Under the pieces are notes generated by a model. The model searched no databases. It was not told the DNA's origin and saw nothing but the letters and a program-made list of their open reading frames with translations. From IMG/VR virus record IMGVR_UViG_3300045988_152913, positions 1 to 12,097 of that record: a stretch of DNA of 12,097 bases. One strand, written 5' to 3'. The translations under genes were made by a program, and so were the position numbers. Source of the DNA: a virus. Shown here piece by piece: positions 1-12,097 of this stretch. The first letter of the stretch is position 1. Every line of letters starts with the position of its first letter.

Positions 1-57
1 AAAGTAATAAGAGGGGGAAAAGTTAGTTCGAACTAACTCGCACTTTATCACGCTAAA
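1..57. repeat. Left inverted terminal repeat (ITR) of a linear protein-primed replicon
   Basis: Bases 1-57 match the reverse complement of 12041-12097 except for the dinucleotide at 29-30 (CG versus GA). The terminus reads 5'-AAAGTAAT, sharing AAAGTA with the phi29 ends. Weaker similarity continues to about position 76. Confidence 0.9.
21..38. repeat. 18-bp perfect palindrome inside the left ITR (AGTTAGTT-CG-AACTAACT)
   Basis: The sequence agttagttcgaactaact is its own reverse complement. Confidence 0.85.
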
Positions 58-76
58 ATGGTAAACCAATAAAGTG
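53..76. repeat. Degenerate three-unit 8-mer array (nTAAAGTG-like) at the inner edge of the left ITR
   Basis: The units are ctaaaatg, gtaaacca and ataaagtg. They sit at the position that mirrors the 7-unit array at the right end, and an inverted unit cactttat lies at 41-48. Confidence 0.45.
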
Positions 77-88
77 TTGAAGTAAGAC

Positions 89-117
89 TTGACAAAAAAT
101 CTCGTTTGTGCTATACT
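89..117 (+). promoter_or_regulatory. Near-consensus sigma-A/sigma-70 promoter for the structural operon
   Basis: TTGACA (89-94), a 17-nt spacer, then TATACT (112-117) with TG at 109-110 giving an extended -10 (TGcTATACT). It lies 22 bp upstream of the first plus-strand gene. Confidence 0.7.
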
Positions 118-5067: not shown

Positions 5068-5932
5068 CTTGCTTAACTATACAGGCGAAAAAAGCCCCAT
5101 CACTATAGGAGATATGCAGATTTCAGACTCCCTCGGAACAAAACTGCTTGCCACTAGTTTAACTTTCGCAGACGCTTCCGTTTTTGCCAGTGGTAATGAT
5201 TTGTGTATGTTTTTTGGTGATTATACTAAGTCCACCTATGTATATAATCAGGGAAGTATATCACCAAGCAGTGATTTTATAACAACATTAAATAGATATT
5301 GGGATATAAGAAAAGTGGAATATGAAAAAATTAAAAATGCTATTATGGCAGAATATAACCCCATTAATAATTACAGTATGGAAGAAAGACACACAGGAAC
5401 GGACACAACCGAAAGCAAGAACAGCGGAACAGACACAACAACAGACACGCACACAGGAACGGACACACTTGCAAAAACTGGCAATGTTGAAAACGCAAAA
5501 GGCACAACACAGACAAACACGGCAGGCATAACAGCGACAACAACAAATGCGGCAGCGGAAATTACTAGCGTTAATCAAGTATCTGCATATGATAGCAATG
5601 ATTTTACAAATCACGATAAAAACACAACATCGACCCCTGAAACAACGCAGACGGTTGCAAATAGCGGAGCGGATACAATCGCTTACAGCGGTAAAGATAC
5701 AATAACAAACAATTTAACCGATACAACAACATATAACACAACTCAAGTAAGCAGTGTAAAATACGGACACAACACAGACAATACTACTACATACGATACA
5801 CTGTTAACCCGTGTAGGTAACATCGGTGTTACCACTTCGCAACAAATGATAGAAAGCGAATATATTTTGAGATTAAAACATTCGCTTATCGAATTATTCT
5901 TAACCGAATTTATAAGAAATTATTGTTTTTAA
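5054..5932 (+). CDS. Lower collar (gp11-like) protein candidate with a Thr-rich repeat core
   Basis: It lies immediately after the portal, as in phi29. A Thr/Asn-rich repeated middle (HTGTDTT twice) is followed by a conserved-looking C-terminus RVGNIGVTTSQQMIESE. The likely start is ATG 5054 or 5060 after GAGGAAGGAG; the 4976 start in the track lies inside the portal gene. Confidence 0.55.
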   Translation: MKMANLLNYTGEKSPITIGDMQISDSLGTKLLATSLTFADASVFASGNDLCMFFGDYTKSTYVYNQGSISPSSDFITTLNRYWDIRKVEYEKIKNAIMAEYNPINNYSMEERHTGTDTTESKNSGTDTTTDTHTGTDTLAKTGNVENAKGTTQTNTAGITATTTNAAAEITSVNQVSAYDSNDFTNHDKNTTSTPETTQTVANSGADTIAYSGKDTITNNLTDTTTYNTTQVSSVKYGHNTDNTTTYDTLLTRVGNIGVTTSQQMIESEYILRLKHSLIELFLTEFIRNYCF

Positions 5933-7954: not shown

Positions 7955-9961
7955 CTAACATTTAAGCATTTTCCTTTCGTAAATGCAGTTTAAAAAAGCC
8001 TTTTCAACGGTCATTGTAAACGGAACAGAATATATATAGCAACCGCCTAGAGTGTGCATTTCTTGACCGTTAATAATTGCTGTGCTTTCTCCGTGGTAAG
8101 TGTGCGCATTTTTACCGCTGACAAAAAATGACATTTCGGGCTTAAAATTATCGTAAAGTGCATTCTCCCCGTTTTCCTTTACATAATCTTTAATTGTCTT
8201 CTTCGGCATTCCCGCAATCACTGCTTTTGTTTTATCATCAACTGTATAAATGTATCTTTTCGCCCCCCACGTTTTAAATTTATTATATGTTTCTTCAAGG
8301 TCAAATAATCCCAAATCTTTATATATCTCAAAATCTAACTTTAATTCATTGCAGATTTTTTTATTCAAATTTAATGTCTTTTCGTTATATTCGTTAAATA
8401 TAGTATTGCAACCTTTTAACACTTTGATACTGTCAGTATCACTATATAATGCTTTTTCTTTGCACTTGTATATATTACTTAATATTATATATCTGCAATA
8501 AGCAGTAATATAAATTCCCCAGTAGGGAGAAAGTATTTGATTTTTTATAACCTTTTCGTAAGTATCCCCTTGTTCCTCTATCCATTCCCCATTTTTAAAG
8601 GTAATTTCTTCCAAATTTAAGCGTGAAACACACATTCCATAACACGAATTTAATTTTCCTTTGCTTTCAAAATAATTCTGCATCCATATATCTGTATCTT
8701 CTTTATTTTCTTTTAAATACTTTTTGTTTTTATAAAATTCCGCAACGGAATTAATTAAGTAAAAAGGTAATTTCTTTTTTACTGCTGTTTTCATCCCTTG
8801 TATTTCCATTTTATCCCATTTGTAAAACATTTCGTAAATTTTATAATCAAGCTCCGTAAGCATTACCGTTATTTCCGTTGCAAATGCAAGCCGACCATTT
8901 TCAAACAATGCGTTTTTCATATTCATTATTTTGTGTTTACTTTCTATAACGTGATGTTCTTTAGCGGTAATATTATAAAATGTATATATTGCTATCGTTG
9001 ACACATTCTCGTTTTTTATTCTTTTATCCCACAATTTAATATCTTCCTCTTCATATTCCGTCATTGGGAATTTATACTGTAGCATTATTGACGGATAAGC
9101 ACTTGTTAAATCATAACTATCAATATTCGTCAAAATATCGCCACAGATGGCGGTCTGAGCGTGTGTAAATCCGCCACGAAATAACCACTTCATAGTAAAA
9201 TTATAAGAAGCTACATCTTTCGGATAAAGTTTCGAAACATCTTTTTTTATACAGTATAACCGCTTGCTAGGTATTTGCTCCTTTATATACTGTCTTACAA
9301 TTCCTGTCGATGTAAAAGGTATTCGCTTGTTTTGCCTTGTGTACTTGTTATGTATGTAATCGGCATATTCCGATAATATAACAACATCATTTATACAGTA
9401 TTGTAATTCTTTATCTGTTAATTCTGTTAAATGATTTCGTTCTATATTATAATCAAGGTCGCCGACTAGCTTTTTTGTTTTACAAAAATTATCAGCAAGC
9501 GTTGCAAGCGATACTCCCGATAAAGCCGCAGAATCCCTAAAAATAAAGCCGTTTGTTAGCTGTACTTCTAGCGGTTGATATTTCGCTTTTGCGAATACCT
9601 TTTTTAATAATCCTTTGCATTCAAGGTAAGGAAGTAAGAAAGACATTTCGAAACCCAAATTATGAACGAATATTATAATATTTGCCTTTGAAAACATTCG
9701 AGGAAGTTTTAAAAATTCAAGCAGATTAAAAAAATCTTCCCATGTTCTTCCGATAATAACCGTTCCGTTTATAGAAAATTGCCAAATGTAAATAAAAGCG
9801 GTTTTTGTTTCTGCGTGGTTTGTTGTTTCTACGTCAAAGCCACAACATAAATCATAGCACTTGTAAGCATTTTCACCTCTGCCTATTTGATAAATTTCGG
9901 GCGGTATAATATTTTTGTTTACTATACAATTCCAACCTTTATTATTATCATAGATTCGCAT
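7955..9961 (-). CDS. Family B protein-primed DNA polymerase (phi29 gp2-like)
   Basis: Motifs in order: ExoI FDVETT, ExoII HNLGFE, ExoIII YCINDVVIL, YxGG FRGGFT, motif A DLTSAYPS, motif B KLNSCYG, motif C YSDTDSI, KxY GAKRYIY. This is the phi29 polymerase order. Confidence 0.95.
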   Translation of the reverse strand: MRIYDNNKGWNCIVNKNIIPPEIYQIGRGENAYKCYDLCCGFDVETTNHAETKTAFIYIWQFSINGTVIIGRTWEDFFNLLEFLKLPRMFSKANIIIFVHNLGFEMSFLLPYLECKGLLKKVFAKAKYQPLEVQLTNGFIFRDSAALSGVSLATLADNFCKTKKLVGDLDYNIERNHLTELTDKELQYCINDVVILSEYADYIHNKYTRQNKRIPFTSTGIVRQYIKEQIPSKRLYCIKKDVSKLYPKDVASYNFTMKWLFRGGFTHAQTAICGDILTNIDSYDLTSAYPSIMLQYKFPMTEYEEEDIKLWDKRIKNENVSTIAIYTFYNITAKEHHVIESKHKIMNMKNALFENGRLAFATEITVMLTELDYKIYEMFYKWDKMEIQGMKTAVKKKLPFYLINSVAEFYKNKKYLKENKEDTDIWMQNYFESKGKLNSCYGMCVSRLNLEEITFKNGEWIEEQGDTYEKVIKNQILSPYWGIYITAYCRYIILSNIYKCKEKALYSDTDSIKVLKGCNTIFNEYNEKTLNLNKKICNELKLDFEIYKDLGLFDLEETYNKFKTWGAKRYIYTVDDKTKAVIAGMPKKTIKDYVKENGENALYDNFKPEMSFFVSGKNAHTYHGESTAIINGQEMHTLGGCYIYSVPFTMTVEKAFLNCIYERKMLKC

Positions 9962-11111: not shown

Positions 11112-11309
11112 TTAAAAAATATACTCGAATGTTGCGCCTGTTGAGATTTTGAGTATCTTTACTTTTTTAGTATACTCACCGCACTCAAACCTTGCGGCGA
11201 TTTCCATCGCCGAAGAAAAACAGTCCGTAAAAGCGGGGATAACGTTCCCGTTTCGCTTTTCGCACGTTACCAAATATCCGAGGTTTGCGCTTCCTTTTTC
11301 CATTTTCAT
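11112..11309 (-). CDS. Hypothetical early protein (65 aa)
   Basis: The SD AAGGAGGTG lies 6 nt upstream of the ATG, and the gene is tightly packed in the early operon. I recognise no motif. Confidence 0.6.
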   Translation of the reverse strand: MKMEKGSANLGYLVTCEKRNGNVIPAFTDCFSSAMEIAARFECGEYTKKVKILKISTGATFEYIF

Positions 11310-11312
11310 TTG

Positions 11313-11564
11313 TTACACCTCCTTGCATTCGTTTATTCGAGCAATTAATTTTGTTAAGGACGTCACAAAATTTGTTGCGCAAGCACTGCTAAGTGTGACA
11401 TTTGTGCTTGCTTTTTGCAGATACTCAAGGTCTTTTGCCGTGTTCGTGATATGCTTTGTCAACTCTGATATGATGTAATTAACGTTAATCTGTACATTTT
11501 CCATGTCAATATTAACATTTTTCATTGCATTGTCCTGTGCTTCATAAAGTCTGTAGTTTTTCAT
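11313..11564 (-). CDS. Hypothetical early protein (83 aa, predicted helical)
   Basis: The SD GGAAGAGG lies 6 nt upstream of the ATG. The stop codon is embedded in the SD of the next gene. I recognise no motif. Confidence 0.6.
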   Translation of the reverse strand: MKNYRLYEAQDNAMKNVNIDMENVQINVNYIISELTKHITNTAKDLEYLQKASTNVTLSSACATNFVTSLTKLIARINECKEV

Positions 11565-11598
11565 GTTAAACCTCTTCCTGTCATTTTGTTTTGAGGTG

Positions 11599-11687
11599 TT
11601 ACCTCTCGTTTCATTGTCTATATATTACACCTTTTATATGTAATCTGTATGATAGTTTTGTGTTAATTATGTGAAATTTGTTTTACC
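11599..11687. repeat. Copy A of a duplicated ~89-bp promoter/leader module
   Basis: It shares with 11902-11990 the blocks ttacctctc(g)tttcattg(t/a)ctatat, a 28-bp core tgatagttttgtgNNaattatgtgaaat (26/28 identical) and a terminal ttacc. Confidence 0.75.
11622..11677 (-). promoter_or_regulatory. Candidate internal early promoter (copy A)
   Basis: The minus strand carries a -10-like TAATAT (11627-11622) preceded by GGTG. There is no good -35, and an upstream TTTCAC box lies in the conserved core. It sits ahead of the 83-aa gene. Confidence 0.35.
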
Positions 11688-11887
11688 TCCTTTTTAAGTC
11701 GGTCAAGCACAACTTGTCCGTTTACCCCTGTCATTTTCTCAAAATACGAGGATTTTAAAAACCTCGCTACCTCGGAGCGCATATTAGGTTCATTGCGGTA
11801 GTCATTAACCGCTTGATTGATTACGGCAATCCATAGTTGTGTATAACCTCCGTTGGTTTTTATCGGACTTTTCTTAAGTGGTCTAAT
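11663..11887 (-). CDS. Hypothetical first early protein (~74 aa) with a non-canonical start (ATT or CTG)
   Basis: An 87-codon open frame on the minus strand has protein-like sequence (...GGYTQLWIAVINQAVNDYRNEPNMRSEVARFLKSSYFEKMTGVNGQVVLDRLKKEVKQISHN). The strong SD AAAGGAG (11903-11897) is followed by CTG 11896, ATT 11893 and ATT 11887. There is no ATG/GTG/TTG until codon 49, and that ATG has no SD. Confidence 0.45.
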   Translation of the reverse strand: MRPLKKSPIKTNGGYTQLWIAVINQAVNDYRNEPNMRSEVARFLKSSYFEKMTGVNGQVVLDRLKKEVKQISHN

Positions 11888-11901
11888 TTTAATCAGCTCC
11901 T

Positions 11902-11990
11902 TTACCTCTCTTTCATTGACTATATTGTACCAAACCCGTATGAAAACTATTTGATAGTTTTGTGAAAATTATGTGAAATATTAACTTACC
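11902..11990. repeat. Copy B of the duplicated ~89-bp promoter/leader module
   Basis: See copy A. Copy B also contains the inverted repeat AAAACTAT-ttg-ATAGTTTT (11943-11961) and two GTGAAA boxes 10 bp apart (11963-11968 and 11973-11978). Confidence 0.75.
11924..11979 (-). promoter_or_regulatory. Candidate telomere-proximal early promoter (copy B)
   Basis: The minus strand carries an extended -10, TGgTACAAT (11932-11924). There is no recognisable -35, and two TTTCAC boxes lie upstream. It sits ahead of the first early ORF. Confidence 0.4.
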
Positions 11991-12046
11991 ACTTTACCAC
12001 TTTATCACTTTATCACTTTACCACTTTAGCACTTTAGCACTTTAGC
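11984..12046. repeat. Tandem 8-bp repeat array (ACTTTAnC, 7 full units plus one degenerate unit) abutting the right ITR
   Basis: Units across 11991-12046: actttacc, actttatc, actttatc, actttacc, actttagc, actttagc, actttagc. A 7-nt unit acttacc precedes them at 11984-11990. The last unit faces an inverted unit (taaagtg, 12051-12057) inside the ITR. Confidence 0.9.
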
Positions 12047-12097
12047 GTGATAAAGTGCGAGTTAGTTTCAACTAACTTTTCCCCCTCTTATTACTTT
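12041..12097. repeat. Right inverted terminal repeat (ITR)
   Basis: The reverse complement of the last 57 bases equals bases 1-57 with two adjacent mismatches. The window starts and ends exactly at the repeat, which implies a full-length linear genome. Confidence 0.9.
12060..12077. repeat. Palindrome inside the right ITR (AGTTAGTT-TC-AACTAACT)
   Basis: The 8-bp arms are identical to the left copy. Only the central dinucleotide differs, and these two bases are the only mismatches in the ITR core. Confidence 0.85.

Follow-up and report, generated by a model that had tools for sequence, protein, structure and literature searches.

A conserved subterminal TAAAGTG module in small protein-primed gut phages, a candidate factor-binding site at the genome ends

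The window, by which we mean the whole stretch of DNA analysed here (12,097 bp), is the complete linear genome of a 12.1-kb protein-primed, phi29-like phage of the human gut. Its genes read inward from each end:

Left end: a holin-like gene of 60 aa, the phi29-type major capsid protein, tail and collar proteins, the connector, an M23 peptidase and a gp16-type packaging ATPase.
Right end: three small early genes, a p5-like single-strand binding protein (SSB), a 221-aa protein at the terminal-protein (TP) position and a 668-aa protein-primed family-B polymerase.

Searches of GenBank phages by DNA BLAST, with the window and with its right end, revealed no relative. More than 100 close relatives (contigs of 11-13 kb, TP 80-97% identical) were detected in human-gut assemblies. 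A search of the window against Rfam found neither pRNA nor any other family, and exact-protein look-ups with the 83-aa early protein (e83) and the holin returned no record.

The genome starts with AAAGTA, as does the terminus of phi29, and is bounded by inverted terminal repeats (ITRs):

1-57: left ITR; it matches the reverse complement of 12041-12097 at all positions but 29-30, up to a break at 58.
12041-12097: right ITR, the mate of 1-57.
21-38: ITR palindrome AGTTAGTT-CG-AACTAACT; its right-end copy lies at 12060-12077 and has the centre GA.

The only internal mismatches of the 57-bp ITR, at positions 29-30, are the centre of this palindrome, and the end of the ITR coincides exactly with the start of a repeat array. 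Tandem Repeats Finder reported this array at the right end with a period of 8 (11986-12044; 7.4 copies, 94% matches, score 90). The window contains 15 exact copies of the heptamer TAAAGTG where 2.5 +/- 1.6 would be expected, and none of 200 shuffles reached 15. The units and their inverted partners are arranged as follows:

11982-12045, minus strand: right (early-end) array, with seven perfect TAAAGTG units (11990-12044) and a decayed TAAGTTA (11982-11988).
11990, 11998, 12006, 12014, 12022, 12030 and 12038, minus strand: the perfect right-end units, exact TAAAGTG.
12038-12057, minus strand: right dyad, CACTTTA-TCACGC-TAAAGTG when read from the end; exact, with the inverted copy at 12051-12057.
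41-60, plus strand: left dyad, with CACTTTA at 41-47, the spacer TCACGC and TAAAATG at 54-60 (one mismatch).
54-84, plus strand: left (late-end) decayed array, with TAAAATG (54-60), TAAACCA (62-68), TAAAGTG (70-76) and TGAAGTA (78-84) in a common 8-bp phase.

A preliminary description of this DNA had noted an 8-bp array at the right end (11984-12046) and a few degenerate units at the left (53-76). The repeat finder and the shuffles confirmed the right-end array as real, non-random and tied to the termini; the coordinates proved correct within 1-2 bases, and the left end carries three to four decayed units in 8-bp phase. The first unit was also said to face an inverted copy inside the ITR (CACTTTA-N6-TAAAGTG) at both ends, which holds exactly at the right end and with one mismatch at the left. 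Read inward, the spacer bases of the right array are C C G A A G G. As a single strand, the right dyad forms a hairpin with an 8-bp stem and a 6-nt loop.

Inward of the arrays lie the terminal promoters, with a second, distinct set of boxes at the early end:

89-117, plus strand: late-end inward promoter, TTGACA-17-TATACT with an extended TG; 11/12 matches.
11924-11932, minus strand: extended -10 of the early promoter (TGgTACAAT), aligned to TATAAT in relatives.
11939-11978, minus strand: four TTTCACA-type boxes with an 11-bp period (11972-11978, 11961-11967, 11950-11956 and 11939-11945).

Only 4 nt separate the end of the left array from the -35 of the late promoter, which is 13 nt from the last intact unit (70-76). 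The TTTCACA boxes are directly upstream of the early promoter, do not belong to the TAAAGTG module and, in close relatives, are conserved jointly with that promoter. Phages of 15 kb without arrays (L052-54) also have this early cassette of promoter and four TTTCACA boxes, at an internal position.

Copy number was compared among relatives that share the ITR of the window. The arrays are shorter than a typical read, so the counts should be reliable, with a probable 1-bp assembly error in L039; the contig ends of the genomes compared may be incomplete. The early ends carry:

Eight units: L040 (six perfect and two variant).
Seven units: the window and L039.
Four units: L037, L044 and L048.
Three units: L041.
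Two units: L031 and L033.

These differences are clean multiples of 8 bp, and the flanking ITR and promoter are conserved. Variation in copy number, which the preliminary description had suggested looking for in related genomes, thus ranges from two to eight whole units under identical ITRs and is of the slippage type. The paired spacers (CC, AA, GG) together with the whole-unit polymorphism fit slippage unit by unit. Judged from the sequence comparison, the conserved core is two or three boxes; it consists of one inverted and two direct boxes. The extra copies are best read as products of replication slippage, neutral or merely tuning occupancy, and the difference between left and right as incidental.

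The late ends of the window, L031 and L044 each hold three units; in L031 the late end, with three, exceeds the early end, with two. Most of the distant relatives have identical arrays within ITRs of 100-550 bp, and L017 shows a one-unit difference between its ends. Because of the reversal in L031 and the identical arrays in long ITRs, the asymmetry of seven versus three units cannot be a conserved polarity mark. The earlier proposal that it signals the polarity of packaging or ejection is not supported, given that reversal and the absence of the asymmetry in most relatives. The seven-copy asymmetry is the most striking yet least meaningful part of the feature.

Two further ideas tied the array to the terminus itself. 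A telomere-like buffer arising through sliding-back initiation does not agree with an array that never reaches the terminus and starts at a fixed offset. We likewise rejected terminal reiteration or sliding-back repeats, since the terminus is the unique sequence AAAGTAATAAG..., with the inverted box starting at nt 41 and the first box at nt 54. The presence of AAAGT within the unit and of AAAGTA at the genome start, noted earlier as an echo, was verified at both places, and many relatives also start with AAAGTA. The echo is probably coincidental, because the TAAAGTG unit is abundant between genes of unrelated large phages and phi29 has this terminus without an array.

To place the array in a wider context, we searched IMG/VR for exact matches with three units and then with the dyad plus two units. 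About 30 related contigs of 11-14.4 kb carry the module. In about 20 of these that are full length, it lies 10-75 nt from both ends, with TAAAGTG always pointing inward on the 5'-ended strand. An alignment of 80 instances gave the consensus YRCTTTA-N6-TAAAGTG-N-(TAAAGTG-N)n, with near-maximal information in the heptamers and zero in the flanks; the rest of the ITR is unalignable. The GC content of the module-bearing genomes of 11-14 kb ranges from 25 to 48%. What they have in common with the window is limited to the polymerase (25-37% identity), the ATPase, capsid, connector and tail proteins and the holin. The TP, SSB and small genes of the distant bearers could not be aligned to those of the window, also when profiles were compared.

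The position of the module is constrained as well, being anchored to the terminus. In all nine independent genomes whose contigs start with AAAG(T), namely the window, L037, L040, L021, L208, L239, L240, L187 (after an adapter) and L196, the inverted unit starts after 38-40 nt of otherwise unrelated sequence. Between the last box and the first strong inward promoter, by contrast, there are from 13 nt, at the left end of the window, to about 180 nt. In the small phages the dyads are found exclusively at the ends. The modules of L027 and of the L025/L028 type lie 0.2-1.5 kb from the contig ends, so that the offset is not universal unless these contigs are incomplete. Many module-bearing members display a second inverted unit (CTTTCC-CACTTTA); two modules per end are present in L005 and L009, and the whole module is repeated in tandem in L002 and L025/L028.

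Among cultured relatives, Amedibacillus phage AD70P3, Clostridium phage HM2, astrithr and phi29 have no arrays. In a simple distance tree of the polymerases (neighbour-joining), most array bearers form one clade, within which the array-less Salmonella phage astrithr is nested, and the array bearers L019 and L027 fall outside it. The presence of the array is hence not congruent with the polymerase tree.

The module is not confined to these phages. About 45 of the 88 IMG/VR contigs with the dyad and two boxes belong to unrelated larger phages of 17-180 kb, both AT-rich and GC-rich. In the parts of their contigs that were examined, 102 of 104 dyads are intergenic, often with one or two extra boxes, and they occur at nearly every gene boundary (28 dyads in 11 kb of L185, 15 in L228 and 11 in L202). 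L213 carries the arrangement GGGGGG-T-AGTTAGTTTTAACTAACT-(10 nt)-TACTTTA-GTGTAC-TAAAGTG, which mirrors positions 13-60 of the window. The AGTTAG..CTAACT palindrome of the window ITR has TAAAGTG dyads beside it also in L240 and in three large phages (L213, L191 and L203). No proteins were found that are common to the small phages and to the neighbours of the large-phage modules. The large-phage modules showed no orientation bias towards sigma70-like promoters (36 versus 31 of 157), so that their job may differ from that in small phages.

Since the dyad fills intergenic regions of unrelated large phages, the heptamer is not private to protein-primed replication. The simplest reading of these sequences would be that several phage types make use of a factor supplied by the host, or of a DNA-binding domain of very wide distribution; the occurrence in unrelated large phages points to a widely exploited regulator not described in the literature searched. 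The large-phage dyads stand among other palindromes: GAACATATGTTC resembles the Firmicute LexA box, and TTGTTAAAAATTTAACAA, found beside these dyads and in the termini of L011 and L021, resembles a Rex box.

For the small phages we favour, at a roughly even chance, the reading that a conserved subterminal module for factor binding has one arm expanded into the array, and that this module would control protein-primed initiation and perhaps the terminal promoters. A sequence-specific DNA-binding protein would nucleate on the dyad and then fill the neighbouring boxes. The resulting nucleoprotein complex would form about five helical turns (about 50 bp) from the protein-capped end, and would promote or gate the opening of the end and the recruitment of the complex of terminal protein and polymerase. 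As the boxes lie upstream of both inward terminal promoters, the complex could also modulate these.

The usual description of a protein-primed phage origin is a terminal protein and a few bases at the terminus, aided by a protein of low specificity such as p6. The module described here is sharply defined, sequence-specific and set at a fixed distance from each end, and is carried by a large clade of uncultured phages that are the smallest tailed ones known. Neither the motif nor a subterminal array in a protein-primed phage turned up in literature searches. The kind of feature is already known, namely factor-binding boxes at protein-primed origins, to which the module is assigned by its putative function; its form is new.

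The closest comparison is with phi29, where four consecutive 7-bp 0A boxes form a region of about 40 bp located 30 bp from both ends, and block formation of the p6 complex and initiation when occupied by Spo0A (PMC2731898). The number of 0A boxes varies between phage groups, and deletions of 25-50 bp remove boxes in related phages (PMC2731898). The recognition or nucleation regions of p6 itself extend over positions 62-125 and 46-68; p6 reads bendability with a 12/24-bp repeat and no conserved sequence signal (PMC4974454). Both p6 and Spo0A also repress the terminal C2 promoter (PMC4974454, PMC2731898).

Like the 0A boxes, the units described here are consecutive 7-bp boxes in a zone of about 40 bp, some 30-40 bp from both capped ends; their number varies between related phages, and phi29 uses its 0A boxes near promoters as well. 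They differ in sequence and geometry (TAAAGTG with an 8-bp period and one inverted partner, against TGTCGAA with a period of about 10 bp), and the module of the window spans a far wider range of phages while being absent from phi29. A TGTCGAA array is absent from the ends of the window. The comparison with the p6 zone that had been suggested also proved apt in position, as the right array covers positions 54-117 from its end and the left array 54-84, compared with 62-125 and 46-68 for p6 in phi29; the Spo0A boxes lie in this zone too. As with the p6 regions, the arrays are subterminal, unequal between the ends and next to a terminal early promoter, and by analogy end opening and promoter repression would be the expected roles. 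An invariant heptamer at a strict 8-bp period across 25-48% GC, in a phage with no detectable p6 homologue, sets them apart.

In adenovirus, the ITR contains sites for the host transcription factors NFI and Oct-1 at a fixed distance from the core origin; one of them is dyad-symmetric, and the motif is also found at ordinary promoters. The module resembles this auxiliary origin in having, by analogy, putative sites for a host-type factor within the ITR of a protein-primed genome, at a fixed offset and with a dyad. The adenovirus origin is unlike it in being eukaryotic and in having single sites for two factors and no tandem array, and the binding proposed here is putative.

Contiguous direct and inverted sub-sites, two to ten in number and bound cooperatively in a spiral round the helix, are typical of the 8-bp metboxes of MetJ and the 7-bp heptads of omega (pSM19035). 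The module recalls these ribbon-helix-helix (RHH) operators in part: its direct units are contiguous at 8 bp and variable in number, but its inverted unit lies 6 bp away (13 bp centre to centre). Metboxes are palindromic and TAAAGTG is not, and no RHH protein was found in the phage; one encoded by the host is conceivable. Iterons of plasmid or phage Rep proteins (units of 17-22 bp) were rejected, as the units here are 8 bp long and the phage has a protein-primed family-B polymerase, a putative TP and a p5-like SSB and no Rep-type initiator.

An alternative that we regard as unlikely is that the module serves purely as a transcriptional operator or enhancer of the inward terminal promoters, without a role in replication, and is located in the ITR merely because these promoters are terminal. 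The near-consensus promoter at 89-117 only 4 nt beyond the left array, the early promoter downstream of the right array and the repression of C2 by p6 and Spo0A in phi29 are compatible with it. So are the intergenic location of 102 of the 104 large-phage dyads and the dyads of L202 and L213, which stand 20-70 nt upstream of TTGACA promoters. It does not account for a promoter distance of 13 to about 180 nt beside a terminus distance fixed at 38-40 nt. Moreover, the early promoter cassette is internal and without array in L052-54, and the large-phage modules have no promoter orientation bias.

Less probable is a structural element that acts in single strands. The inverted unit would pair with a direct unit, AGTTAG..CTAACT would form a second hairpin, and both would stabilise the open origin without a dedicated protein; a 20-nt 3' tail would be left as priming template, and extra units would provide alternative pairing registers. 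Folding of the 3' template strand of the right end indeed gave both hairpins (-13.7 kcal/mol, z = -6.6) with a 20-nt tail, and the left end folds alike using its sole perfect unit. The AGTTAG..CTAACT stems show compensatory inner changes across phages, and the dyad was flagged by prediction as a terminator-like hairpin. One direct unit would, however, suffice for such pairing, yet at least two are conserved in strict 8-bp phase. By eye, stem positions 1-2 and 6'-7' covary only partly in the large phages; the AT-rich 7-bp stem is weak compared with the duplex, and the fact that the very bases of TAAAGTG stay constant from 25 to 48% GC points to readout by a protein. Hairpins may contribute to function, and do not explain the conserved extra boxes.

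We consider it very improbable that the array is coated by a protein of the phage itself, p6-like or one of the small early ones, and that the asymmetry of seven versus three marks the end for packaging or ejection. The arrays do coincide in position with the p6 regions of phi29, themselves unequal in size, and the 65-aa gene takes the place of gene 6, immediately upstream of the gene for the p5-like SSB. As described above, L031 has the opposite asymmetry and most relatives have none. The role proposed earlier for a p6-like protein conflicts with both the genes and the signal: no p6 or p4 homologue was detectable in the window with Pfam, PHROGs or hhalign, and the signal is a heptamer at 8 bp, whereas p6 reads bendability at a 24-bp repeat.

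The small early proteins of 74, 83 and 65 aa (e74, e83 and e65), which had been put forward as binders, fare no better. A search for homologues of e74 led to the 15-kb gut phages L052-54, in which e74 is 87% and e65 82% identical and the SSB is related; a homologue of e83 is present in L053 only. TAAAGTG units are absent from the ITR ends of these phages, which have a phi29-type polymerase (27% identity to that of the window) and an unrelated TP. As the early cassette has been exchanged between array-bearing and array-less lineages, it is not co-adapted to the array.

Further distant homologues of e74 occur in unrelated siphoviruses. Comparison of the small early proteins with Pfam, PHROGs and PDB sequences gave phrog_7024 as sole match, to e74 and without annotated function. 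The model of e65 (pLDDT 84) shows a bbabb fold whose best matches, non-significant, are T4 Dmd and the UDG inhibitor p56, which are not DNA binders; e65 is not an RHH protein, and none of the small ORFs of the window matched an RHH family. With hhalign, profiles of e74, e83 and e65 reached a probability of at most 0.7% against phi29 p6. From these comparisons, the three small early proteins appear not to be the partners of the array.

A neutral origin has a very slim chance. A slippage-prone 8-bp repeat tolerated in non-coding subterminal DNA, that is a functionless minisatellite, would agree with the whole-unit polymorphism among near-identical genomes, with the spacers C C G A A G G that suggest duplication unit by unit, and with the many unrelated bacterial genomes, among the matches listed, in which three TAAAGTG units are simply repeated and no dyad accompanies them. 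The heptamer, its dyad partner, the length of the 6-bp spacer, the orientation and the offset of 38-40 nt are nevertheless conserved at 25-37% polymerase identity, and a neutral repeat would not survive such divergence, where the ITRs themselves are unalignable. This reading holds only for the copies past the first two or three.

It is scarcely conceivable that the heptamers are an end-protection decoy, Chi-like or nuclease-modulating, that attenuates a host exonuclease of the AddAB/RecBCD type from a damaged or uncapped end: the strict orientation to the end, the multiple copies in flexible number and a motif common to phages without common proteins would fit, but the inverted unit, the fixed offset and the dense intergenic spread in both orientations in large phages would stay unexplained, the genome ends are protein-capped, and the Chi sites known from Firmicutes are rich in G and vary from genus to genus.

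If the array is a factor-binding arm of an origin module, as we favour, the remaining phage-encoded candidates for the binder are the TP, the polymerase and the packaging ATPase only. A BLAST screen for presence and absence revealed no protein family specific to array-bearing genomes. Comparisons by hhalign among TP candidates of different sub-clades, and against the early proteins of phi29, revealed no relationship except that of the SSB with p5. The AlphaFold model of the TP (pLDDT 75) has an N-terminal region of the type a-a-b-hairpin-a, with insignificant winged-helix-like matches only; its matches to MarR/KH-like folds were insignificant as well (E >= 0.46, TM <= 0.3), and we do not count this model as evidence of DNA binding.

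The binder is most likely a host protein, or else a very widespread domain. It is possible, though we hold this only tentatively, that the module is the site of one conserved DNA-binding protein of gut and rumen Firmicutes, co-opted by many unrelated phages. If so, phage replication and transcription would be coupled to the physiological state of the host, as with Spo0A and phi29 and on a much broader scale. Several points weigh against the favoured reading of a factor-binding module. Hosts spanning 25-48% GC would need to have one factor of unchanged specificity in common, and the 8-bp period places successive boxes on different helical faces, a spacing that few known families of binders use. 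The mismatch between array presence and the polymerase tree, the missing orientation bias in large phages and the modules of L027 and the L025/L028 type far from the contig ends count against it too. The DnaA box, parS, CIRCE, the NrdR box, boxA, the MotA box, Chi and the CRP/FNR geometry were compared by eye and were rejected or gave weak leads.

The module offers a handle for finding the factor, from phage or host, that binds or gates the origin. It could also be of use for minimal orthogonal protein-primed replicons for Firmicutes and for recognising complete genome ends in metagenomes. A scan of bacterial genomes for three units yielded at least 120 matches, which among those listed were mostly plain repeats without a dyad in unrelated phyla; the host clue among them came from only three phage-like contigs binned to Clostridia/Lachnospiraceae.

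The 15-kb gut phages that lack a TAAAGTG array (L052-L054) share with the window (11112-11896) the genes for the 74-aa early protein e74, the 65-aa early protein e65 and SSB, sometimes that for the 83-aa early protein e83, and the promoter, at 48-87% identity. Since the polymerases, terminal proteins and structural genes of the two lineages are all different, the common cassette indicates that small gut phages exchange early genes as modules. The following features belong to this early region:

Window 11939-11978, minus strand: four TTTCACA-type hexamer boxes with an exact 11-bp period, located where the early promoter would otherwise have its -35 region.
L052, about 8480-8540: the same TTTCACA box cassette.
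Window 11112-11309, minus strand: e65, 65-aa protein at the position of phi29 gene 6 (model pLDDT 84).

The entire cassette of TTTCACA boxes and TATAAT is kept in close relatives of the window, and in the array-less 15-kb phages it is found at an internal position. In their arrangement the boxes are similar to the direct repeats to which response regulators of the OmpR/PhoP type bind.

The ORF listing of the window omits e74 (phrog_7024), which is the first of the early genes. Its start region (window 11885-11896, minus strand) reads GGAGCTGATTAAA in the window versus GGAGATGATTAAA in L052. Because CTG stands where the relatives have ATG, e74 either uses a non-canonical start (CTG, or ATT 9 nt downstream) or is poorly expressed in this strain. 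The predicted structure of e65 displays a bbabb fold, and its top structural matches, all non-significant, were the T4 Dmd antitoxin and the p56 UDG inhibitor of phi29/PZA. According to this model, e65 may be a small inhibitor of a host protein rather than a DNA binder.

Palindromes adjoin the TAAAGTG dyads (inverted unit, 6-bp spacer, direct unit) in several phages. The inverted terminal repeats of the window contain one of them:

Window 21-38 and 12060-12077: palindrome AGTTAGTT-NN-AACTAACT.

Its left and right copies differ solely in the two central bases. The same hairpin, AGTTAG..CTAACT, adjoins the dyads of unrelated large phages (L213, about 6590; L191, L203) and of the 14.4-kb phage L240, with compensatory changes in the inner stem across these phages. 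In the intergenic regions of two further large phage contigs from IMG/VR, L202 and L185, each dyad is accompanied by two near-perfect palindromes, one similar to the Firmicute LexA box (GAACATATGTTC) and one similar to the Rex box (TTGTTAAAAATTTAACAA); the latter is also the terminal palindrome (positions 7-24) of the small phages L011 and L021.

The 21-kb IMG/VR contig L010 carries about 30 units of 8 bp at about 1300-1560 (TAAAGTG, GAAAGTA, TACAGTG and similar), with a dyad in front. A CRISPR array with the repeat GTTTTTAG(C/T)T(G/T)ACCTATGAGGAATTGAAAC lies about 130 nt from these units.

In public assemblies, the contig ends of L004, L011, L019, L031 and L187 showed sequencing adapters joined directly to phage sequence, of the TruSeq (...CTTCCGATCT) and Nextera (...AGATGTGTATAAGAGACAG) types; in L187, AAAGT directly follows the adapter. 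Junctions with ligated TruSeq adapters can mark physical DNA ends, and Nextera junctions can lie at any position. Adapters of both types are contamination of public records.

Two further features of the window are:

Window 7955-9961, minus strand: polymerase.
Window 5382-5467, plus strand: 30-bp tandem repeat (2.8 copies) with a 12-bp sub-repeat, within a 318-aa gene.

In the clade to which the window's polymerase belongs, the N terminus is extended by about 37 aa and the C terminus by 40-90 aa, and the TPR1-like insertion of phi29 polymerase is absent. This clade includes the Gram-negative 11.5-kb phages Salmonella astrithr, Pectobacterium DU_PP_III and Acinetobacter Phanie (about 33% identity). 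The 318-aa gene sits at the lower-collar (phi29 gp11) position, and its repeats encode a low-complexity stretch rich in Thr, Asn and Gly.
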